This document shows positions 3,838 through 61,227 of a DNA stretch of 64,000 nt, in pieces. Source of the DNA: Chloroflexota bacterium (lineage in GTDB: Bacteria; Chloroflexota; Limnocylindria; P2-11E); NCBI GenBank assembly GCA_038040345.1, contig JBBPIQ010000001.1, positions 645,927-709,926 on the forward strand, written 5' to 3'. How positions within the stretch are numbered: the stretch's first letter is position 1; the number at the start of each line of letters is the position of its first letter. The position numbers were made by a program, and so were the translations under genes. A model generated the notes under the pieces. The model saw nothing but the letters and a program-made list of their open reading frames with translations, searched no databases and was not told where the DNA came from.

Positions 3838-4836
3838 ATGAACAACTCAAGGGCAATCGTCGCTACGATCGGCATCGCGTTCGTCATTGCGATCGGCGCG
3901 ATGGCAGGCACCGCAGCAAATGCGGCAAACCCGCCCGTCGGCCTCGGAAGCGCCGCAACATACTCGGTGCTCGCCGGCACGCCATCCATCACGAACACTG
4001 GCGCCACCACCATCGACAGAGACGTCGGCATCCACCCCGCAGACTCGATCATAGGATTCCCGCCCGGAATTATCGGCGGAACAGTTCACGCGGGCGACGC
4101 CGTCGCGCTTCAGGCCAAGTCCGACCTCACTGTTGCTTACTTAGATGCGGCGGGCAGACCTGTGACGGCTAACCACTCAGCGCTCGGCGGGCTCACCCTC
4201 GTCGGCGGCGTGTACAACGCCAACGGCGCCACGCTCGGCCTCACGGGCACGCTCACACTCAATGGCCAGGGCGATCCGAACTCCGTCTGGATCTTCCAGG
4301 CCACGTCTGATCTCGTGACGGCATCGACGAGCTCCGTCGTGTTCATCAACGGCGGGAGCCCCTGCAACGTCTTCTGGCAGGTCACGAGCTCAGCGACTCT
4401 GGGATCGGGCTCTCACTTCGTTGGAACGATCCTGGCCCTGGACTCCATCACATTGGCCAATGGCGTCACCGTCAACGGCAGAGCGCTGGCACGGAATGGC
4501 CTGGTCAGTTTGATCAACGACACCTTCATCACGTCCACGTGCAACGCTGCCGCGCCGGTGGTCGTCCCCCCGGGGACGCGGCCACCGTTCACGCCCGGCC
4601 CGACCGCGACACCTGTGCCGGCGCCGATCACCACGTTCACTCCCGCTCCCGTGGTCGCACCCACGGCTGCACCAGTTGCCGCCGTTCCGACCGCTAAGCC
4701 TGCAGCAGTCGCCGGTACGCAACGGCTGCCATCGACGAGCACAAATGACCCGGCAGGTCCGCTCACGATGCTCGGCGTCGCACTGACCGGCATCGGGATC
4801 CTCCTGCTGCGCGGTCGAACGACTCGGCACCTTTAG
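3838..4836 (+). CDS. secreted ice-binding-family (DUF3494) protein with a Pro/Thr/Ala-rich linker and a C-terminal LPSTST + transmembrane + basic-tail sorting signal
   Basis: Signal peptide (IVATIGIAFVIAIGAMAG). The DUF3494 ice-binding-family motifs are present in order: GLGSAATYSVLAG, AYLDAAGRP, GGLTLVGGVY, VWIFQA, NVFWQV, HFVGTILAL...NGRALA. A ribosome-binding site agggag lies 8 nt upstream of ATG 3838. The C-terminus is QRLPSTSTNDPAGPLTMLGVALTGIGILLLRGRTTRHL. Confidence 0.8.
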   Translation: MNNSRAIVATIGIAFVIAIGAMAGTAANAANPPVGLGSAATYSVLAGTPSITNTGATTIDRDVGIHPADSIIGFPPGIIGGTVHAGDAVALQAKSDLTVAYLDAAGRPVTANHSALGGLTLVGGVYNANGATLGLTGTLTLNGQGDPNSVWIFQATSDLVTASTSSVVFINGGSPCNVFWQVTSSATLGSGSHFVGTILALDSITLANGVTVNGRALARNGLVSLINDTFITSTCNAAAPVVVPPGTRPPFTPGPTATPVPAPITTFTPAPVVAPTAAPVAAVPTAKPAAVAGTQRLPSTSTNDPAGPLTMLGVALTGIGILLLRGRTTRHL

Positions 4837-4919: not shown

Positions 4920-4949
4920 TGGCCGGGGTCCTTGGCCCAGGATTCAGAC

Positions 4950-5342
4950 ATGACAACCTCCCAACCAACAAAGACACCCGCCCCGGCACCGCCTCGTAGC
5001 TCGACGAGCGTGAACGTCCCGGCCGCACCCGCGCGAAACGCTTCGATGTGGACCGCGAGCCGCGTTATCGCGCTGGTGTTCACCGTCATCGAAGTGCTCT
5101 TGCTTGTTCGATTCACGTTCAAGCTTCTGGGAGCGAACGCGGATCAGCCGTTCGTGTCGGCGATCTATGGAATCACCGAGCCGCTCGTCGGCCCGTTCCG
5201 CGGCATCTTCGCCCAGCCCGCGGGCACGCCGGTCGTCGAGATCGCCGCGCTTCTCTCAATCGTCTTCTTCGTACTCGTCGCAGCCCTCATCGTCGCGCTG
5301 GTTCGCGCCTATACCGGCCGACGCGCCGTATCGAACCCGTGA
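4950..5342 (+). CDS. YggT-family membrane protein
   Basis: YggT/Ycf19 signature LLLVRFTFKLLGAN..QPFVSAIYGITEPLVGPFRGIF, followed by a transmembrane helix. ATG 4950 is preferred; the track begins at TTG 4932. Confidence 0.7.
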   Translation: MTTSQPTKTPAPAPPRSSTSVNVPAAPARNASMWTASRVIALVFTVIEVLLLVRFTFKLLGANADQPFVSAIYGITEPLVGPFRGIFAQPAGTPVVEIAALLSIVFFVLVAALIVALVRAYTGRRAVSNP

Positions 5343-5512
5343 TGAGCGACTCGAAGACCGCGCGACCTCGTAACCAGCTCGGGGAGCCGGCGACTACAAC
5401 GCCTGAGGAGACGATCGCCCGGCTCAAGGAGAAGGTCTCCAAGAACCACGGCGCCGCGAATCGCGAACGGATCCAGGCGCAGATCTCACAGGAACGGGCG
5501 CCTTCGGTCTAG
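5342..5512 (+). CDS. small hypothetical protein (56 aa) whose start overlaps the YggT stop (ATGA-type overlap)
   Basis: ATG at 5342 overlaps the YggT TGA at 5340-5342. Hydrophilic product MSDSKTARPRNQ...ERIQAQISQERAPSV. Followed immediately by a strong terminator hairpin. Confidence 0.3.
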   Translation: MSDSKTARPRNQLGEPATTTPEETIARLKEKVSKNHGAANRERIQAQISQERAPSV

Positions 5513-5537
5513 GAACCCCTTAGTCCGGGCGTTAGAA

Positions 5538-5564
5538 AAGAGGGGCGGTCGTTCCGCCCCTCTT
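5538..5564 (+). terminator. rho-independent terminator hairpin
   Basis: Sequence aagaggggcgg-tcgtt-ccgcccctctt: a perfect 11-bp GC-rich stem with a 5-nt loop, followed by the T-rich stretch ccttta. Confidence 0.55.
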
Positions 5565-5795
5565 CCTTTACGCGATGACGAGGCGTCTCAGACGGATGCC
5601 GATGCCTTCACGGTGGATCTCCTTGAGCGAGAACTTTCGGCGTGGGTGTCTTCTCCAAACGGAACGGAATGAGGTCATGAAGGATCCCGAGGGACGTGAG
5701 CGCAAGGCCCACGAGGGCCGCGCCGATCAAGGTGAAGTCCGAACCGAGGAGCTCTGCCACGCTGCCAAAAGTGTGGATGTGCGACCAGCGCGTGC

Positions 5796-5813
5796 CATGA
5801 CGAAAGCGTCATG
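5796..5813. promoter_or_regulatory. palindrome CATGACG-aaag-CGTCATG, a spaced variant of the GTCATGAC motif
   Basis: The sequence reads gccatgacgaaagcgtcatgaaa. It lies in the 670-bp intergenic region upstream of the LPSTS small-protein gene. Confidence 0.35.
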
Positions 5814-6190
5814 AAACGCAGTGACTCCGAGCCTACTGTCGAGCGGTGCTAGATATCTGGTTCGTCGCCGGCATCGCGCTCGGCACCATCGTCACAGGCT
5901 TCTGCGCGATCGGCTCTTTCGATCGCGGTTCCGACAGCGTCCAGCGCCGGTCATGGAACCGCGAGCACGCCGCGCGCAAGCGCGCGCTCCTCGCCTCTCG
6001 CCCGACGATCCGCGCGACCGCTCAGCACACGCCTCCGGGAGCCATCCCCAAGGCGAGCTGACGCCCTTCGCAAGCAAGCGGTGCGTATGAGTTAGCGGCC
6101 CAATTCCGTATGACATCAGAGGAACGAAAGTGTGACGACGCACGCGGTAGTTCCGACGACGATGGACTCGGGAAGAGAAATGGAGTCGTC

Positions 6191-6646
6191 ATGAAATTCG
6201 CCGCGTTGATCGTCGCCGTCATCCTGATGGCGTTCGGTTCTAAACAAGTCGCTGCTGCTGACGTGAGCGTATGTGGCCAGCTCAATGCGTACCAGACCGC
6301 GACGTCGAAGGATGGCAAGCCGCAGAACACAATCCTGTCGCTCAAGACATCTTTGGGGTTCGTCGATTACCAGCTCGTGCTGAACGGAACGGTCCCCGCG
6401 GATCTGGCTCAGAATCCGGCGCTGCCGGAGATCCTCCAGCTAACGGGCCGCACCGTTGAGGGCATCAACACGGTCGCCGATTACACGGTCACGCGAGTCG
6501 CGTCATGTTCGTTGCCGAGCACGAGCACCGCCGCGGCGACGACGGACGCCGGTCTCTTTGGGTCGATCGCGAGCGCTCTAGCCGTCCTGTTCGCTTTCGC
6601 CGGCGCTCTCGTGACCGGCGTGAACCACCGGAAAGCCGCCTCGTAG
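6191..6646 (+). CDS. small secreted protein (151 aa) with a C-terminal LPSTST + transmembrane + basic-tail sorting signal
   Basis: Ribosome-binding site ggag 5 nt upstream of ATG 6191. Signal peptide MKFAALIVAVILMAFGSKQVAAA. The C-terminus is SCSLPSTSTAAATTDAGLFGSIASALAVLFAFAGALVTGVNHRKAAS, with the same LPSTST hexapeptide as the ice-binding-like protein. Confidence 0.6.
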   Translation: MKFAALIVAVILMAFGSKQVAAADVSVCGQLNAYQTATSKDGKPQNTILSLKTSLGFVDYQLVLNGTVPADLAQNPALPEILQLTGRTVEGINTVADYTVTRVASCSLPSTSTAAATTDAGLFGSIASALAVLFAFAGALVTGVNHRKAAS

Positions 6647-6733
6647 CGCGTCACGCATTCAACTAGTACCGCCGTACTGCCCTGTTCGGCTAGTACCCGA
6701 TGCCTTCCCAGCGACACGCCGTTAGTCAGGCGA

Positions 6734-8188
6734 GTGGAAAGCACGCAGACGCAGGCGCCGACGGGCGCCGACGGTCGGCACGAACGCCAGCTGATCGCCG
6801 GTCGCTACCGGCTTGCGTCCTTTCATCGAGGCGACGAGACCACCGAGGTCTGGCGTGCGCTCGACGAATCCACCACCCAGGTCGTCAGTCTCGAGTTCTT
6901 GCGCGACTCCGATCCGGCGGGCAAGGAGCGCTTTCTCGCGGGAGGGCGCCGCTTGGCGTCGGTCCAGCAGCCGTCTGTCATGCGAGTGGCCGCGATCCAC
7001 GACGACCACGACGGGACCTTCATCGTGTTCGAGCACCTTGTCCACATACCCGTACCGCTCGAATGGCTGAAGCCGGCCGTCGAAGCGCCGCTGCCTCTTT
7101 TGAAGGTCGCCGAGCCGACGGCGATAGAGACGCCGCCGGTCGCGTCAGAGGCGGCGGAGCTCGCGGTCGCCGCCCCACCCGATCCCACGGCGGCACCCGG
7201 CGACCATGGACTCAGCTTGTTGCTCTTCGCGCTCCGCTCGCGGGAGCTTTCGCTCATCGACCAGGCTCTTTTACAGGAATCGGCGATCGAGTTCCTCGAC
7301 GTCGTTCTCGCCGAGTTCAAGGCGGTGCGGCTGGACCCAGACTTGGTGCCCGACGCCCGCTCCTTCGTGGTCTCGCTGCTCACGTCGGGGCCGAGACGCG
7401 CCGCCTCCGTCGTCGGGCGGATCGCGACGATTCGCCCGCGTTTCCGAATCGGGACTCCCCGCATGTCACAGCCCAAGCAACCGAAGCAACCCAAACAACC
7501 GAAGGCGGTCGCTGGCCCGTGGCTCAAAGAGACGCCCGTGGCGGAGGCCAAGCCCCTCAAAGTGCCGAAGATGAAGGAACCGCGCGCTCCCCGTGCCGCA
7601 CGCGGACCTGGCATGCGAATCCGGTGGGGCCGCGTGCTCACACGTGGTCTGACGCTCGGTGTCCTCGCGGCCATCCTGGTCTCGCTGCCCCCGGCGATCG
7701 TCGGGAACCTCGGGGGCGTCGCCAACAACGTCGCGAACGTCGCCGGCAACATCGCGGGCCAGGTCAGCTCGACCATCAGCGAGAAGCTCGCGTCGGTCCA
7801 GTCCACACCGGGGCTCCAGCGCGCCAGCTTCGAGCTTCCGCCGCTGAGCGCGTACGGCGCCGCGTTCGAGTCACAGGCCCCGTATCCCCATGCGAGTCCG
7901 AACGGGACGGTCGAGTGGGTCGTCGCGCTCCGCAACACCGGCTCCGTGGGCTGGTACCGCGGGATCGATGGCGCGCAAGCCTCGCTTGCCCTCGCCGACG
8001 GAACCACCGCAGGCGTGCAAACGACGGACTTCGTCGGGCCGGGTCAGCTGGGCTGGTTCGTCGTCCACTTCCCAGCGCCGTCGCAGGCGGGCACCTCGAA
8101 AGTCCGGCTTCTTCCTCGGATCGACGGTCGCGGGTCCCTGCCCGACCTCGGCATCTACGCCACGGTCACGGTGTCGCCGAACCCGTAG
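6734..8188 (+). CDS. membrane protein with a degenerate kinase-like N-terminus lacking the Gly-rich loop, a PKQ repeat linker, one transmembrane helix, and an extracytoplasmic C-terminal domain
   Basis: The N-terminus resembles the N-lobe of Hanks-type Ser/Thr kinases (RYRL...VVSLEFLRD...VMRVAAIHDDHDGTFIVFEHL) but has no glycine loop or catalytic motifs. There is a (QPK)x4 repeat and a TM helix LTLGVLAAILVSLPPAIVG. The overlapping ORFs 6700-8196 (+) and 6823-8007 (-) I judged artefacts. Confidence 0.5.
   Translation: MESTQTQAPTGADGRHERQLIAGRYRLASFHRGDETTEVWRALDESTTQVVSLEFLRDSDPAGKERFLAGGRRLASVQQPSVMRVAAIHDDHDGTFIVFEHLVHIPVPLEWLKPAVEAPLPLLKVAEPTAIETPPVASEAAELAVAAPPDPTAAPGDHGLSLLLFALRSRELSLIDQALLQESAIEFLDVVLAEFKAVRLDPDLVPDARSFVVSLLTSGPRRAASVVGRIATIRPRFRIGTPRMSQPKQPKQPKQPKAVAGPWLKETPVAEAKPLKVPKMKEPRAPRAARGPGMRIRWGRVLTRGLTLGVLAAILVSLPPAIVGNLGGVANNVANVAGNIAGQVSSTISEKLASVQSTPGLQRASFELPPLSAYGAAFESQAPYPHASPNGTVEWVVALRNTGSVGWYRGIDGAQASLALADGTTAGVQTTDFVGPGQLGWFVVHFPAPSQAGTSKVRLLPRIDGRGSLPDLGIYATVTVSPNP
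7469..7504 (+). repeat. tandem 9-bp repeat encoding (PKQ)x4
   Basis: The sequence reads cagcccaagcaaccgaagcaacccaaacaaccgaag. Confidence 0.5.
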
Positions 8189-18836: not shown

Positions 18837-18979
18837 CTCGATCTTTGTTGCGCGCGAGATGTCACCGACGCGTGCTGGGGAGCATCAGCATCGGGGCGCG
18901 CGGGGTCGGTCGTCAAACGACGGTTATGTCTCTGCATCGTCTTTGCGCGAGGTTTGATGCCGCCGATCGGACGTGCTCG

Positions 18980-19972
18980 ATGAAAATGCGACCCATGGCA
19001 CGCGGGACGCTCTTCGCGGTCGCGCCGTTCGCACTCGTCGCCGCACTCGCGATGGGTGTGGCGCTCGTAGGATTCGTCGTGAGCCCGCGTGCTCCATCCG
19101 AACCGGCCGGATTGGCGACAACGGCATCCCCGACCGAAGTCGCGATCTCGGCGACTCCCGAGGCGACGGCGTCACCGAGCTCTGCTCCATCAACCGCTGC
19201 GGCGACGATGGGTCCGAAGTCGAACGACTCGGCCGAGATGCTCCGTGTGCACAACGAGCTTCGCGCCGCGATCGGCGCGCCGGCGGTGCGCGGCGACGAC
19301 CGCGTGACGGCAGCGGCGCAGCGCCACGCGGAGTACCTCGCGCGCGCCGGCGCCATCGGGCACGACGAGACAGCGGGGCAGCCCGGGTTCACAGGCGCGT
19401 CCGTTCGCGATCGCCTGGCCGCTCAGGGCTACGCCGACGCGACAGCGAGCGAGGTGGCGGCATCGTCCGACTCCGGGACCGAGGACGTGCACTTTCTCTG
19501 GGATCTTCCGTACCACCGCCTCGGGCTCATGCATCCGCACGCGGCGATCGCGGGATGGGGCCACGCCGAGATCGGTGGCCACACCGCGACGGTCGGCGTC
19601 CTCGTGTTCGACTTCGGGGCCGCCGCACCCGAACGCGTGCGGTCGCCCGCGGCGGGCCAGCGCGTGACGGGATCGTGGGCCGGCGACGAGACCCCCGATG
19701 CGCTCCCCACGGGCGCGGCCCGCCCGGTCGGATACCCGGTGATGATCGTGTACTCGCGCGCGCCGTCCGTCGATCTGAAGAGCGCGAAGCTGACCGATGC
19801 GAGCGGACGCGACGTCGCGGTGTCGGTCGTCCCGCAGATCTACGAGCGCGACTACGCCGGCATCGTGCCGACGGCCCCTCTGGCCGCTGGCGGGCGTTAT
19901 CGCGTGCGGTTCGAGCTCACGGTCGCGGGGAGCGATGTCGTGGACGAGTGGGAGTTCGAGACCGAGCCCTAG
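18980..19972 (+). CDS. secreted CAP-domain (SCP/PR-1-like) protein
   Basis: N-terminal TM/signal segment, a Ser/Thr/Ala-rich linker, then a CAP core (MLRVHNELRAA...AAAQRHAEYLARAGAIGHDE...HRLGLMHP). Confidence 0.65.
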   Translation: MKMRPMARGTLFAVAPFALVAALAMGVALVGFVVSPRAPSEPAGLATTASPTEVAISATPEATASPSSAPSTAAATMGPKSNDSAEMLRVHNELRAAIGAPAVRGDDRVTAAAQRHAEYLARAGAIGHDETAGQPGFTGASVRDRLAAQGYADATASEVAASSDSGTEDVHFLWDLPYHRLGLMHPHAAIAGWGHAEIGGHTATVGVLVFDFGAAAPERVRSPAAGQRVTGSWAGDETPDALPTGAARPVGYPVMIVYSRAPSVDLKSAKLTDASGRDVAVSVVPQIYERDYAGIVPTAPLAAGGRYRVRFELTVAGSDVVDEWEFETEP

Positions 19973-29842: not shown

Positions 29843-30535
29843 TCAAGGCGGGGTTGGGAAATCGAGGACGACCCGGAAGGGTCCGGCGAGCTCGGTCACC
29901 TTCGGGCACGCGAGGTGGTCGAGGCCGACGCCCCAGAGCAGCACTCGCTCGAAGTCCTCGACGATCTTGACCTCTTTGATGAGCGGCGTCGTCGGCTTTA
30001 TGTCGTTGCTCCCGGTGTAGCTCGGCGTGCCATTCGGGTTTTGGGTCGAGGCGTTCTGGAACCGCGTCCCGAAGAGCGCGTTGCCGACGATCGTGACCGG
30101 CTGCCCGCTCGGCCCGGAGAGCGAGGTCGCGGTCTCGACGGTGTAGGCCGGCATGCCGAAAGGCCCGGGCGCGGTGCTCTGACCGAACTCGAAGACGAGG
30201 CGATCGAAGCCGGGCTGGTGCGCCACCCGCACCGCGACCAGCTGGGCCTGGTTGCTCGCGTTCCCGCCGGTCGTCCGAGGGCACGCCGCAGCGGGCGTGG
30301 ATCCCGGGCTTGCGGTTGCGGTCGGGACGGTCGTCGGAGAGCTGGTCGGTCGAGCAGTCGCCGTCGCGATCGGCGGGACCGAGGCCGTCGCCGTGGGGCT
30401 CGCTGACCGGGAAGCGGACGCAGTCGGGGTCGCCGTCGGCGACGAGGCCACGTCCGGTTGGGGCCCACACGCGCTCACGACCACTATGCCGAGGGCCAGG
30501 GCCAGCGCCCCGTAGATAATCAAGCGTCCAAACAT
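29843..30535 (-). CDS. hypothetical lipoprotein with a Ser/Thr/Pro/Ala-rich linker
   Basis: Internal start MFGRL was checked (cat at 30533-30535). Lipobox VVVSAC. The C-terminal domain of about 130 aa is of unknown function. Confidence 0.5.
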   Translation of the reverse strand: MFGRLIIYGALALALGIVVVSACGPQPDVASSPTATPTASASRSASPTATASVPPIATATARPTSSPTTVPTATASPGSTPAAACPRTTGGNASNQAQLVAVRVAHQPGFDRLVFEFGQSTAPGPFGMPAYTVETATSLSGPSGQPVTIVGNALFGTRFQNASTQNPNGTPSYTGSNDIKPTTPLIKEVKIVEDFERVLLWGVGLDHLACPKVTELAGPFRVVLDFPTPP

Positions 30536-30646
30536 CTGACCCAAAGCCTGCGGGACTAACGCAACGCTGTCGAGTTCGTCGACAAGCAGCCGAGCGTTCT
30601 GTACGAAGTCCGTCCGGGACACCATTTTTGGTAAAATGCATCTCGA

Positions 30647-32812
30647 GTGGCCGATCGCCTGCGATTGGCGCTGGTGTTTCACCAGCACCAGCCGGCCGGG
30701 AATTTCCCGTCAGTCTTCCAGGATGTGACCGAGCGGGCGTACGCCCCCCTCGTGGCCACCCTCTATCGGCACCCCGAAGTAAAGGCCAGCCTTCACTTCT
30801 CGGGGCCGCTCCTCGATTGGCTGGAAGCCAACCGCCCAGACGTCATCGGGGACCTCTCCGACCTGGTCCGAAGGGGTCAGATAGAGCTCCTCTCCGGGGG
30901 CTATTACGAGCCGGTTCTGGTCGGTGTGCCTCGGCGCGACGGCGTCGCCCAGATTCGGGCGCTTTCCGATCGGGTTCACGCGATCTTCGGACAGCGCCCG
31001 TTGGGCGCATGGCTGACCGAGCGGGTGTGGGAGCCCCACCTCCCGTCTCTCCTCGCCGAAGCGGGAGTCGCGTACACGGTCCTCGATGACGAGCACTTCC
31101 TCCAGGCGGGACTCCGCCCGCAGGAGCTCGGCGAGTCGTACGTCACGGAAGACCAGGGCCTTCCGGTCATCGTCTTCCCCGGAAGCGTGAAGCTCCGCTA
31201 CCTCATCCCGTTCCGCGACGTGAGCGCAACGATGAAGGAGCTCCGCGCCCGAGCCGACGAGGGCGCGCGTCTCGTCGTCTATGCGGATGACGGCGAGAAG
31301 TTCGGCGGCTGGCCGGGCACCTACCAGCGCGTGCACAAGGACGGCTGGCTCGAGCAGTTCTTCTCGGCGATCGCGCAGGCCGACTTCATCCAGACGACGA
31401 CGCTCGAAGACGCCTGGGTCTTCCAGAAGCCCGCGCGGCGTATCTACATCCCATCCGGGTCGTATCCCGAGATGGCTGAGTGGGCACTTGAGCCGAACGC
31501 TGCGAAGCGGTACCAGCAGGCGCGGAACAAGCTCGGCGACGAGTCTTCAGCGCTCGTTGCCGCTCCGCTCTGGCGGAACTTCCTCGCGAAATACCCTGAA
31601 TCCAACGCCCTCCACAAGCGGATGCTCATCGTCAGCGAGGAGCTCGCGCGCCGCAGCATCCTCGACGCATCGGCCGAGGTCCGTCAGGCGCAGCAGAACC
31701 TGTGGCGCGCACAGGGCAACGACGTGTACTGGCATGGCGTCTTCGGCGGCATCTACTTCCCGCACCTTCGTGCCGACGCGTACGCCTCCCTGCTGAAGGC
31801 AGAACGGATCCTGTCGGAGCGGCGCACCGCGGCCGGCGAGCAGCGCGACTACGACGTCGACGGCTACGACGAATACATCTTCCGTGGGAACGCGGGTGCC
31901 GTGTTCGTGCACGTCCAGGGCGGCGCCGTCATCGAGTGGGACATCTACGCGTCGGCGACCAACCTCGTCGACACCCTCGCGCGCCGGCCGGAGGCCGAGC
32001 ACGAAGCGCTGCGTCGCGCCGAAAAACTCGGCAAGGTCCTCGTCGGCAAGGCAGCAGAAAAAGAGTCGAAGTCCATCCACGAGGCCGTGCGCGCACGGGA
32101 GCGCGGCCTCTCGAAGCTTCTCGAATACGACGTCGCGCGCCGCGCGTTCTTCCAGGACAGCTTCCGCGTCGGAAAGGCCGAGCCGGTCGTGCTGCACGCG
32201 TACTACTACCAGCTCACCCCGCAGCGCGAGGCGCGCACCGTGAGCCTCATCCTCGAGCCGCCGCCGCGCTCTCTCGCGAGCGTTCCCGGCCTCGGGATCC
32301 GCAAGGACATCCGCATCGCCGACGAAGGGCTCGCCGCTGGCGTCCGCTACCGCCTTCGCAACGACGGCGAGGAAGCGATAAGTCTCCAGTTCACCAGCAC
32401 GTCGAACATCGGTCTGCTTTCCGAGCAGAACCCGGCCGACGTGATCACGGTCGGCACGCGGAAGACGACCGCGGGAAAGCCGATCGACGCGCGGCATGTG
32501 TCAGAAATCGCCGTTCACTCGGAATCGAAGCACTTTGACATCGCAATTGCTATCGATCCGCCGTGCGAGGTGACGACACGGCCGATCTACTCGATCACCA
32601 ACTCCGAGCAGGGCTTCGAACGCGTCTATCAGCAGTTGGAGATCGCCTCGATGTGGAACGTCACCATCGAGCCCGACGCCCATGTCGACCTCGAGGTGCG
32701 CGCGACCGCGGTCGGCCAGATGGTCGAGCCGGACGCCGTTCGTCCGACGGCTCGGCGCCGCAAGGCCGCGGCTGGCGCGAGCGCGGAAACGGCGAGGGCT
32801 CCGCGGAGGTAA
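30647..32812 (+). CDS. GH57-family alpha-glucan-active enzyme (4-alpha-glucanotransferase / amylopullulanase-like)
   Basis: Classic GH57 start LALVFHQHQP. The catalytic region and 721-aa size fit GH57 glucanotransferase-like enzymes. Confidence 0.75.
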   Translation: MADRLRLALVFHQHQPAGNFPSVFQDVTERAYAPLVATLYRHPEVKASLHFSGPLLDWLEANRPDVIGDLSDLVRRGQIELLSGGYYEPVLVGVPRRDGVAQIRALSDRVHAIFGQRPLGAWLTERVWEPHLPSLLAEAGVAYTVLDDEHFLQAGLRPQELGESYVTEDQGLPVIVFPGSVKLRYLIPFRDVSATMKELRARADEGARLVVYADDGEKFGGWPGTYQRVHKDGWLEQFFSAIAQADFIQTTTLEDAWVFQKPARRIYIPSGSYPEMAEWALEPNAAKRYQQARNKLGDESSALVAAPLWRNFLAKYPESNALHKRMLIVSEELARRSILDASAEVRQAQQNLWRAQGNDVYWHGVFGGIYFPHLRADAYASLLKAERILSERRTAAGEQRDYDVDGYDEYIFRGNAGAVFVHVQGGAVIEWDIYASATNLVDTLARRPEAEHEALRRAEKLGKVLVGKAAEKESKSIHEAVRARERGLSKLLEYDVARRAFFQDSFRVGKAEPVVLHAYYYQLTPQREARTVSLILEPPPRSLASVPGLGIRKDIRIADEGLAAGVRYRLRNDGEEAISLQFTSTSNIGLLSEQNPADVITVGTRKTTAGKPIDARHVSEIAVHSESKHFDIAIAIDPPCEVTTRPIYSITNSEQGFERVYQQLEIASMWNVTIEPDAHVDLEVRATAVGQMVEPDAVRPTARRRKAAAGASAETARAPRR

Positions 32813-38961: not shown

Positions 38962-39525
38962 TTACGGCGCCTTTGTCGGGCTCGCGCTCGGTCGCGCGCC
39001 GCCGCCGAGGCCGGCGCCTCCGGTCTGCGAGCCGAAGAGCTGCCCCAGGATGTTCGTGGAGCCGACGACGATCGCGGTCGCCGAAACCATCCCCGTCGCG
39101 TCGGTGGTCCCGACGACGGTGATCTGATCGTTGACCTTGAGGTCGCTGAGCTTCACATCAGCCTCGGTCGTCTTCACGATCCGCGTACTCGCACCGACGA
39201 GCACGATTTCGGATGTCGTCGCGGGCGAGGCCGACGCCTGCGCGTTCTGTCCCGCACCACGGTCGACCGCGGCGATTGTGATCGAGCCATCGTTCACAGC
39301 GAGGATGCGTCCGGTGATTGGTTGCTGCCCGGTGGCCGCGCCGGTCCCGCCGCCGCCGAAGCCGCCGCGTGCGCCGGTCCCGCCGCGCGCTCCGGTCGCT
39401 CCGGTCGCGCCCGCCGTGTTCGTGCTCGGGGTCTGCGCCTTGTCGAACGTCATGCCAGCCGCGAAGCCGCCGCCCGCGAGGGCGAGCGCCGCGACCACTC
39501 CGATCACGATCTGTGGTGCCTTCAT
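38962..39525 (-). CDS. secreted Gly-rich hypothetical protein, last gene of the efflux operon
   Basis: Signal peptide MKAPQIVIGVVAALALAGGGFAAG, then a Gly/Thr/Ala-rich region and a beta-rich C-terminus (ITGRILAVNDGSITIAAV...ITVVGTTDATGMVSATAIVV). Confidence 0.45.
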   Translation of the reverse strand: MKAPQIVIGVVAALALAGGGFAAGMTFDKAQTPSTNTAGATGATGARGGTGARGGFGGGGTGAATGQQPITGRILAVNDGSITIAAVDRGAGQNAQASASPATTSEIVLVGASTRIVKTTEADVKLSDLKVNDQITVVGTTDATGMVSATAIVVGSTNILGQLFGSQTGGAGLGGGARPSASPTKAP

Positions 39526-39544
39526 TTCAAACCCCTTTGTTTCG

Positions 39545-40825
39545 CTATTCATATCTGAGTGCCTGTATCGGATGGAGCCGCGCCGCGCGCATCGCCGGGT
39601 AGAGCCCGAAGACGACGCCGATCGCGACCGAAACGCCCACGGCGATGATCACAGTGCCGCTCGTGATGAGGAGCGGCAGGCTCGCTGCTTGCGGGATGCG
39701 ATGGACGACCTCGGTGATCGCCCATCCGAGCAGGATGCCGATCACGCCGCCGAGACCGGTGAGCGCCACCGCTTCGATGAGGAATTGGTTGAGGATGTCG
39801 CCGCGCCGCGCGCCGACGGCCTTACGAATGCCGATCTCGCGCGTCCGCTCGTTCACGGACACGAGCATGATGTTCATGATCCCGATGCCGCCGACGAGCA
39901 GCGAGATCCCGCCGATCGCGCCGAGCAGAAGCGTGAACGTGCCTGTGACGGACGAGAGCGCGGCGAGCGTGTCGTTCTGGTTGGTGACCGCAAAGTCCGC
40001 GCTCGCCGGATCCGCGATGTTGTGGCGTACGAGGAGGATGTTGCTCACGTCGCTCGTCGTGCGATCCATCGTTTCGCTCGACGTCGCCTTGATCACGATC
40101 TGATTCACGCGATTCAGCTGGCCGGTCAGCACGTGCTGCGAAGTGGTGAGCGGCACGAGGATCTGGTCGTCGCGGATCTGTCCGAACGTGCTGCCCTTCG
40201 TACCGAGCACGCCGACGACGCGGAAGTTCAGGATCCGCGCCCGCTGCGCCGCCGCGCCCTGGCCGCCACCACCGAATGCCTGCCGTAGCTGGATCGTCTG
40301 CCCGACAGGGTCGATGTCACCGAACAGGTTCGCCGCGGTCGTCGATCCGAGCACGGCGACCTGCGCGTTCACGTTGATGTCGGATGCCGTGAAGAAATCG
40401 CCGCTGTCGAGGCCCCAGTCGCGCACGATCGGATAGTCCTCGGTCACACCGGTCACGGTCGTGTTGGTGTTCTGTCCTGCGGCTGTGACCTGCCAGCGGC
40501 CGGCCTGCTGTTCCGCTTCAGCAGCTGAGATCGAATCGCCCAGCTGGTCTTGGATCGATCGCATGTCGTCGATCGTCAAGGTCTGCGCCTGTGCCCCGGC
40601 TCCGCGAAGGCCCTGGTCCGTCCCGTTCTGCGGCGTCACCGTCACGAGATTCGAACCGAGGTTGAGGATCGTGTTCTGCACGCTTTGCGACGCGCCATTG
40701 CCGACGCTGACCATCGCGATCACCGCGGCGACGCCGATGATCACGCCGAGCATCGTCAAAGCCGAGCGCAGCTTGTTGACGACGAGCGACTGCAGCGCCG
40801 ATCGGAACGAGTCGTAGAGCTTCAT
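39545..40825 (-). CDS. ABC transporter permease, MacB/FtsX-like
   Basis: MacB-like N-terminal transmembrane helix followed by a periplasmic domain, and a C-terminal FtsX four-TM domain. ATG 40823-40825 overlaps the ATPase gene stop (ATGA). Confidence 0.85.
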   Translation of the reverse strand: MKLYDSFRSALQSLVVNKLRSALTMLGVIIGVAAVIAMVSVGNGASQSVQNTILNLGSNLVTVTPQNGTDQGLRGAGAQAQTLTIDDMRSIQDQLGDSISAAEAEQQAGRWQVTAAGQNTNTTVTGVTEDYPIVRDWGLDSGDFFTASDINVNAQVAVLGSTTAANLFGDIDPVGQTIQLRQAFGGGGQGAAAQRARILNFRVVGVLGTKGSTFGQIRDDQILVPLTTSQHVLTGQLNRVNQIVIKATSSETMDRTTSDVSNILLVRHNIADPASADFAVTNQNDTLAALSSVTGTFTLLLGAIGGISLLVGGIGIMNIMLVSVNERTREIGIRKAVGARRGDILNQFLIEAVALTGLGGVIGILLGWAITEVVHRIPQAASLPLLITSGTVIIAVGVSVAIGVVFGLYPAMRAARLHPIQALRYE

Positions 40826-60762: not shown

Positions 60763-61227
60763 CTAGGTGGTGCGGGGTGATGTGATCGCGCGCACCAGCG
60801 CGACGATCAGAGCTGCGATGAGGAAGAAGAACGCGACCGCGAGGAGCGCGGCGAGGTCAAGCGCCGGCGGACCGGACGGCTCCGGGAAGATGCCCTGGAA
60901 CGGACGGACCAGAGGCTCGGTGATCCGGTACAGGCCGGAGACGAGTGGCTGGTTCGCGTTCGCGCCGAAGAGCTTCAGTACGAACCGGAGCAGCAGCAGG
61001 ACCTCGAGTACGGTGAACAGGAGCGTGACGACGCGCGTAACCGTCCAGACCCCGTCGTTCCGCGCGACCGTCGCGGTCGTCGGTCCGACGTTCACGTTCG
61101 ATGCAGCCGGCGGCGTGTACGCGGGACGAACGATGCGCTCGCGCTCGTAGCGGTCGATGCGCTCGGTCGTGTCGTGATCGGGGCGTGGTGCTGATGTAGC
61201 CATGCCCGACGAGGGAGCAGGTGGCAT
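60763..61227 (-). CDS. YggT-family membrane protein (paralog of the 4950-5342 gene)
   Basis: Motif LLLLRFVLKLFGANANQPLVSGLYRITEPLVRPFQGIFP. About 60% identical to the first copy over the C-terminal ~100 aa, including the N-terminal SNVNV segment. Confidence 0.7.
   Translation of the reverse strand: MPPAPSSGMATSAPRPDHDTTERIDRYERERIVRPAYTPPAASNVNVGPTTATVARNDGVWTVTRVVTLLFTVLEVLLLLRFVLKLFGANANQPLVSGLYRITEPLVRPFQGIFPEPSGPPALDLAALLAVAFFFLIAALIVALVRAITSPRTT

Follow-up and report, generated by a model that had tools for sequence, protein, structure and literature searches.

Secreted proteins of Limnocylindria (Chloroflexota) share a C-terminal LPSTST cassette that is probably a serine variant of the LPXTG cell-wall sorting signal

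Two nearby genes in a 64,000-nucleotide stretch of DNA from an uncultured soil Chloroflexota bacterium of the class Limnocylindria (the window) encode secreted proteins which end in the same type of C-terminal cassette, built around the hexapeptide LPSTST. We consider it probable that this cassette is the lineage's variant of the LPXTG cell-wall sorting signal, with Ser in place of Gly, and that it would be processed by a sortase. The signal is tripartite and conserved, it stands strictly at the C-terminus, it is carried by many unrelated passengers, and the models which it matches best are models of sortase signals. Systems of this kind are already known; what appears to be undescribed is a clade-wide LP[SATN]T[SNG]T signal, mostly LPSTST, in an uncultured class of Chloroflexota. 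In the literature we found no report of LPSTST as a sorting motif and nothing specific on sortase in Limnocylindria or Chloroflexi.

The first of the two genes (6191..6646, +) codes for a secreted precursor of 151 aa belonging to an orphan family of the Limnocylindria lineage. Its product starts with MKFAALIVAVILMAFGSKQVAAAD and ends with CSLPSTSTAAATTDAGLFGSIASALAVLFAFAGALVTGVNHRKAAS, and exactly the same 151-aa product was called in two independent Logan contigs. The enclosing ORF spans 6110-6646 (+), and use of the in-frame upstream ATG would place 27 extra, charged residues (MTSEERKCDDARGSSDDDGLGKRNGVV; window 6110-6190, +) before the signal peptide, and the annotation of one database homologue, P0002 (177 aa), includes an extension of this kind. 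The putative ribosome binding site, GGAG at 6182-6185, 5 nt before the ATG at 6191, and most of the homologues favour the start at 6191.

Residues 1-23 (MKFAALIVAVILMAFGSKQVAAA; 6191..6259, +) read as a Sec-type signal peptide. Cleavage would be expected after the AxA-like site at the end of MKFAALIVAVILMAFGSKQVAAA, the next residue being D, and both the h-region and the A-A-A/D junction are kept across the relatives in our alignment A1. The passenger (residues 24-107; 6260..6511, +) is about 85 aa long and reaches from Cys28 (VCGQLNAYQ) to Cys106 (ASCS), which is invariant in alignment A1; these are the only two Cys of the protein. The passenger is predicted to be beta-rich, and the AlphaFold2 model, based on a nine-sequence alignment, had a pLDDT of 43, showed only strand propensity and was unusable. 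No relative of the 151-aa protein was found in Pfam, NCBIfam or the PDB, where a profile search gave nothing below E 0.4. The LPSTST motif (L108-T113; 6512..6529, +), recognised from the sequence and from its conservation in relatives, is followed by the seven-residue spacer AAATTDA (residues 114-120; 6530..6550, +), which differs among the orthologues of alignment A1, by the hydrophobic segment GLFGSIASALAVLFAFAGALVTGV (residues 121-144; 6551..6622, +) and by the short cytoplasmic tail NHRKAAS with its basic residues and the stop codon (6623..6646, +). In alignment A1 all orthologues retain the hydrophobicity of the segment without conservation of its sequence, and their tails are of the type R..RR or RK. 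The initial annotation had already described a 151-aa protein with a signal peptide, two Cys, LPSTST, a helix and a basic tail, with which the ORF and the Logan calls agree; the hydrophobic helix, given there as 20 aa, measures 24 residues (G121-V144).

The second gene (3838..4836, +) encodes an ice-binding-like (DUF3494) secreted protein. It matches PF11999 with E 9.4e-56 and 189.2 bits against a gathering score of 28.7. Since its score for the NCBIfam equivalog IBP_CFB is far below the cut-off (72 versus 400), we do not assign it to that family. The protein is 100% identical to P0009, an NCBI entry named 'MAG: ice-binding family protein [Chloroflexota bacterium]', and shares 94% identity with a protein of 'Candidatus Limnocylindria bacterium'. 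Its signal peptide, read from the sequence, is MNNSRAIVATIGIAFVIAIGAMAGTAANA, and its C-terminus is ...QRLPSTSTNDPAGPLTMLGVALTGIGILLLRGRTTRHL, in which QRLPSTSTNDPAGP, the hydrophobic segment LTMLGVALTGIGILLL (L309-L324) and RGRTTRHL follow one another in this order. The LPSTST motif corresponds to L297-T302 (4726..4743, +), and the hydrophobic segment together with the basic tail RGRTTRHL and the stop codon to 4762..4836 (+). The stop codon lies 1.35 kb before position 6191.

Both proteins thus have a signal peptide, an L-P-x-T core about 30-45 residues from the C-terminus (L108-T111 of 151 residues and L297-T300 of 332) and a helix with a basic tail before the stop; position 5, which is Gly in LPXTG, is Ser in both of them. 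The two C-termini had been called identical. This holds for the hexapeptide and for the layout, which are all that the two proteins have in common there, and is otherwise overstated, since the sequences of spacer, helix and tail are not the same. When the window is translated in all six frames (127,996 codons), LPSTST appears at these two sites only, where 0.02 sites are expected from composition. Four of the six motif codons are unlike (TTG CCG AGC ACG AGC ACC in the 151-aa gene, CTG CCA TCG ACG AGC ACA in the ice-binding gene), and therefore the match exists at the protein level and is not copied DNA. With the genes just 1.35 kb apart one could think of a coincidence, or of a recent local DNA duplication of one tail, either of them devoid of functional meaning. 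We regard this as practically out of the question: it is refuted by the codons, by the 0.02 expected sites and by the retention of both tails in orthologues from many samples, and further by a syntenic contig (L006, see below) whose ice-binding gene has the cassette without the 151-aa gene being there; spacer, helix and tail are, moreover, unrelated in sequence.

Among 5.8 billion proteins we found eight homologues of the 151-aa protein, with 30 invariant columns in the alignment. Every complete C-terminus of the family contains S-C-[SA]-L-P-[ST]-T-[SG]-T, followed by an unconserved spacer, the hydrophobic segment and a tail rich in R and K. As motifs we found LPSTST, LPTTST, LPSTGT and, in a more distant Limnocylindria homologue, LPNTST, that is LP[STN]T[SG]T, and the residues L, P and T111 are kept in all relatives with a complete C-terminus. 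LPSTS is likewise retained in the orthologues of the ice-binding-like protein. Of its closest 120 homologues, which reach down to about 60% identity, 118 have LP.T[SNG][TS] and 102 have exactly LPSTST. The pentapeptides are LPSTS (102), LPATN (5), LPATS (4), LPSTN (4), LPFTS (1), LPLTS (1) and LPSTG (1); position 5 is accordingly occupied by Ser 108 times, by Asn 9 times and by Gly once, the remaining 2 homologues having no motif, and position 6 is Thr in 116 of the 120. Ahead of the motif, the linker rich in Pro, Ala and Thr drifts freely among the same homologues. Since the motif is kept while its surroundings vary, the alignments indicate that it is under selection. A minority of proteins (P0003, P0122 and P0130) has Gly at position 5, as would be expected for a relaxed LPXTG specificity.

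The order of genes in this part of the window, namely the ice-binding gene, yggT, a 484-aa gene, creatininase and genes beyond, is kept in three related loci (L001, L003 and L006). In L006, a 92-kb syntenic metagenome contig, the 151-aa gene is missing from the interval between the yggT-associated small ORF and a gene of about 470 aa (L006:11710-12104, corresponding to window 5512-6734), and the ice-binding gene still carries its cassette. Each cassette is therefore retained independently of the other, and the 151-aa gene is an accessory gene within the lineage.

Some further genes of the window deserve mention. Two genes for YggT-family membrane proteins (PF02325) are present, at 4932-5342 (+) and 60763-61227 (-), the former directly 3' of the ice-binding gene, a position kept in L003 and L006. 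Just upstream of the 151-aa gene there is a 71-aa ORF with a GTG start and one hydrophobic segment (5846-6061, +), which has no Pfam match and is called as a gene at this position in L001, L002 and L003 as well. The 484-aa gene (6734-8188, +) begins 88 nt downstream of the 151-aa gene and is syntenic in L001, L003 and L006; its product has no Pfam domain, a faintly kinase-like N-terminus (NF033483, E 0.078) and a middle part rich in lysine and proline (PKQPKQPKQPK), behind which there is a hydrophobic stretch. The window also encodes a CAP domain protein (18845-19972, +), an AMIN-like domain protein (29843-30688, -) and a protein with a weak DUF5666 match (38962-39552, -). The LPSTST cassette is absent from these three proteins with envelope-type domains, so that wall anchoring of this type would be limited to part of such proteins.

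The cassette is found on many other proteins. A profile of its 39 positions (A2), searched against 1.84 billion representative proteins, gave 36 matches at E <= 1e-3, consisting of ice-binding fragments and of proteins with other N-terminal parts; another protein search with a cassette profile returned short fragments only. The non-ice-binding matches (P0151, P0154, P0158, P0159, P0161 and P0147) all possess a signal peptide, and their C-termini consist of (A)GVQxLPSTST, a helix and RRR. A position-blind DNA pattern for G-V-Q-x-L-P-S-T-S-T, run on JGI metagenomes, returned 120 loci. The GC content was at least 0.62 in 88 of them, and in 76 of these 88 one or more ORFs end in a complete cassette, 94 such ORFs in all, which stand two or three in tandem in 16 loci. 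The other 32 loci, of low GC content, are chance matches and carry no cassette. The in-frame GVQxLPSTST sequence occurs 87 times in the high-GC loci and is located in 85 instances at most about 45 residues from the stop, with the hydrophobic stretch and the basic tail behind it. The passengers range from about 90 to 1028 residues, and when the scan ORFs were clustered together with the cassette ORFs from the earlier loci (n = 107 in total), the N-terminal parts formed 21 similarity clusters; a Pfam search with ten representative passengers found essentially no domain. LPSTNT, LPSTAT, LPSTTT and LPSTSS were seen as further variants of the motif. As read from all these sequences the consensus is LP[SATN]T[SNG]T, a spacer of 6-12 residues, a hydrophobic segment of 16-24 residues and a basic tail. 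The initial annotation had argued for a dedicated sorting or anchoring pathway with a motif of the LPXTS type, and this is supported by the conservation and by the many unrelated secreted carriers, among them P0151, P0154, P0158, P0161 and the 94 cassette ORFs from the metagenomes. The two outcomes named there as refuting the idea, a motif absent from all other secreted proteins and a lack of LPSTS conservation in orthologues, were thus not observed.

The metagenome loci showed several recurrent features. In one type of high-GC locus a gene for a TetR regulator (about 195 aa) is followed by one to three tandem genes for LPSTST-cassette proteins with different passengers, often by a gene for an HTTM polytopic membrane protein (PF05090, about 495-550 aa) and then by one for an adenylate cyclase-AAA-TPR protein of about 1100 aa; genes for a Ser/Thr kinase and an aminotransferase frequently lie in the vicinity. 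This arrangement was found in L035:1219-8557 and in L071, L075, L080, L133, L014, L009 and L134. Some cassette proteins are minimal, with a signal peptide, about 20-40 residues and the cassette (P0166, P0170 and P0147, 90-97 aa; L134:7242-7463 is a further example), and still shorter forms of 72-73 aa (P0184, P0185 and P0188) have the degenerate motifs ALPATST, NVPLPSTDT and NVALTSTDT. If these minimal substrates were processed, the mature peptide would have only about 10-45 residues. In many non-ice-binding substrates a pseudo-copy of the motif context, VAGVQ[TS]xP, precedes the true (A)GVQxLPSTST by 14-40 residues; we saw it in the linkers of P0151, P0154, P0158, P0161, P0147 and P0166.

The established models of sortase signals recognise part of these cassettes. 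With TIGR01167 (cut-off 15.9 bits) we obtained 21.1 bits for the cassette protein of L130, 20.6 for P0158, 20.5 for P0151, 19.5 for P0154 and 16.5 for the protein of L035, and the ice-binding homologue P0045 reached 16.0 bits. With PF00746 (cut-off 20 bits) P0158 scored 24.6 and the L130 protein 23.8 bits. Many homologues bear the JGI label 'LPXTG-motif cell wall-anchored protein'. The two window proteins have no match to TIGR01167 or PF00746 even at E <= 1 and are therefore missed by standard annotation. MYXO-CTERM (14.3-15.1 bits versus 20), GVDTG_CTERM (12.9-17.1 versus 29), LPxTATN (14.4 versus 32) and Microco_LAVTG (NF058582) all stayed below their cut-offs on the LPSTST cassettes. Neither window protein was matched by the exosortase-type '-CTERM' models of NCBIfam, which contains no model dedicated to the LPSTST cassette. 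The models that match best are thus those of sortase signals.

That the window proteins fall under the thresholds of the LPXTG models would also suit a plain C-terminal membrane anchor that is never cleaved. LPSTST would then be a conserved juxtamembrane element rich in Ser and Thr, for example for O-glycosylation or as a stalk motif, and neither the window nor the related loci yielded a sortase. The main oddity in this respect is a Limnocylindria MAG homologue of the 151-aa protein (L005:9446-10459, +; about 337 aa) with two domains. Its first domain ends in ...AAGSLPNTSTAQAATGD and runs straight into a domain homologous to the 151-aa passenger, which itself ends in a full cassette of LPNTST, helix and RSRRRS. 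The internal LPNTST, an inter-domain linker, has no helix after it, and therefore the motif can also sit in a linker. To us the protein looks like a fusion of two former substrates, of which the first would have lost its helix and the second its signal peptide. A stalk motif, however, gives no reason to expect that the short distance between L-P-x-T and the helix stays fixed, and dozens of unrelated proteins keep L-P-x-T while the rest of the linker drifts. Several relatives exceed the cut-offs of the LPXTG models, some members have Gly at position 5, and 85 of the 87 occurrences are terminal. We therefore think an uncleaved anchor quite unlikely and prefer a sortase-processed LPXTG-type signal.

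Sortases are recognised by the domain PF04203, a His-Cys-Arg triad and the motif TLxTC. As the initial annotation had stated for the window, we found no sortase gene in these 64 kb, and the same holds for about 770 kb of related sequence (135 loci). The TLxTC pattern with its His and Arg context gave no sortase in the window or the related loci, and neither did phmmer searches with the SrtA sequences of S. aureus and S. pyogenes. Pfam searches with 30 mid-sized window genes, precomputed Pfam matches for 3.8-17.7 kb and Pfam searches with the recurrent neighbours of the substrates were equally negative for sortase. An HMM of several sortase classes, run on all ORFs of 90 aa or more from the window and the 135 loci, scored at best 8.5 bits; its seeds, of class A, C and D, came from a tblastn search of SrtA against plasmids, in which the records were mostly from Bacillota with a few from Bifidobacterium, the matches listed were all of class A, C or D, and no class E/F or Chloroflexota seed was obtained. 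Two groups of neighbours were considered as candidates and rejected: the genes just downstream of the new substrates are adenylate cyclases according to Pfam, and the sortase-sized recurrent neighbour of about 195 aa is the TetR regulator. The lack of a sortase near the substrates is what is expected if the enzyme is a housekeeping sortase unlinked to them.

The same lack of a sortase in the sequences examined could mean that another type of processing enzyme reads LPSTST, which would then define an undescribed '-CTERM' class comparable to the signals of exosortase, archaeosortase, rhombosortase or myxosortase. The extended (A)GVQxLPSTST with Thr at position 6 is unlike canonical LPXTG, NCBIfam has no dedicated model, and in several loci the polytopic HTTM-domain membrane protein adjoins the substrates. 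This adjacency is limited, however, to one conserved type of locus (TetR, substrates, HTTM, cyclase), and HTTM proteins are not known to be peptidases. L-P-x-T is exactly the recognition core of sortases, and the LPXTG model passes its cut-off where the MYXO-CTERM, GVDTG and LPxTATN models do not. A non-sortase enzyme thus appears very unlikely to us. A bolder proposal, for which we see only a small chance, is that LPSTST is read either by a non-sortase enzyme specific for Limnocylindria/'Eulabeiota' or by a sortase clade with obligate Ser or Asn at P1' and Thr at P2'; were the second option true, it would be a natural orthogonal 'LPXTS-sortase'. Most simply, the LPSTST route would be the lineage's version of the ordinary LPXTG/sortase route and not a new kind of pathway, because TIGR01167 and PF00746 recognise related cassettes and because JGI labels some of them LPXTG.

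By analogy with this ordinary route we infer the enzyme, the cleavage site and the linkage to the wall as follows. The precursor would be exported by Sec, and the hydrophobic segment with the basic tail would keep it in the membrane. A membrane-bound cysteine transpeptidase, probably a housekeeping-type sortase encoded elsewhere in the genome, would then cut between Thr111 and Ser112, the presumed scissile bond if cleavage takes place as between Thr and Gly of LPXTG, and the passenger would be transferred to the amine of lipid II or another peptidoglycan precursor. As a result the Cys-bracketed domain of about 85 aa and the ice-binding-like domain would both be displayed covalently on the wall of a monoderm cell.

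What is known of the host is consistent with such an envelope. Among species-representative genomes, a relative of the 151-aa protein was found solely in a Ca. Limnocylindria MAG (JBHEML010000006). The GC content of the window is 63-70%, and a mean of 68.9% has been reported for Limnocylindria genomes (PMC10608941). Limnocylindria, also known as Ellin6529, RIF-CHLX or 'Eulabeiota', have been reported to be without outer-membrane genes and to possess genes for peptidoglycan synthesis (bioRxiv 10.1101/2021.08.23.457424), and are therefore presumably monoderm. The cassettes are evidence at the level of sequence that this abundant uncultured high-GC class of Chloroflexota uses an LPXTG-like route for many surface proteins, which supports a monoderm, peptidoglycan-walled envelope.

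The results define a searchable signal, LP[SATN]T[SNG]T with helix and basic tail, of which the current models catch only part. Since TIGR01167 and PF00746 miss the window proteins, the surface proteomes of these genomes are under-annotated. The signal should be of use for annotation and in judging the envelope of Limnocylindria, and it may also lead to a Ser-specific sortase: should the cognate enzyme really favour Ser at P1', it would be worth considering for orthogonal, sortase-mediated ligation to N-terminal Ser. A specialist will not be surprised by a system of this type.

Among known systems the PEP-CTERM, PGF-CTERM, GlyGly-CTERM and MYXO-CTERM signals resemble the LPSTST cassette in that many unrelated secreted proteins carry them at their very C-terminal end, as a motif with a helix and a basic cluster; their signature motifs, however, are others. 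The corresponding enzymes, exosortase, archaeosortase, rhombosortase and myxosortase, are polytopic in the membrane and often encoded next to a substrate, and we recognised no enzyme of these types in the sequences examined. Other lineage-specific sortase signals, namely LAXTG of class E, LPNTA of class D, NPQTN of class B, LPxTATN (NF058670) and Microco_LAVTG (NF058582), likewise show a clade-wide shift of the pentapeptide with the tripartite layout retained, although the substituted position and residue are not those of LPSTST. The LPXTG signal itself (TIGR01167, PF00746) is read by housekeeping sortases, of class A in Bacillota and of class E/F in Actinomycetota. It shares with the LPSTST cassette the signal peptide, L-P-x-T about 35-45 residues from the C-terminus, the spacer, the helix and the basic tail, as well as the occurrence on many unrelated surface proteins of one organism and an enzyme gene unlinked to most substrates. 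The LPSTST signal differs in that Ser (about 90%) or Asn (about 8%) stands at position 5, so that the canonical Gly at P1' is replaced in about 98% of cases, in that Thr at position 6 is near-invariant and (A)GVQ precedes the motif in many substrates, neither of which is known to be conserved in classical LPXTG signals, and in that the host is an uncultured Chloroflexota class. Real sortases do tolerate Ser or Asn after the scissile Thr. In Streptococcus agalactiae there are two LPXTS and two LPXTN signals among 35 substrates, and an LPXTN protein, ScpB, depends on SrtA in vivo (PMC8225981); in vitro streptococcal SrtA accepts LPXTS as well as N-terminal Ser nucleophiles (PMC9126251). Such signals are rare exceptions in S. 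agalactiae, whereas the cassettes described here normally have Ser and only rarely Gly.
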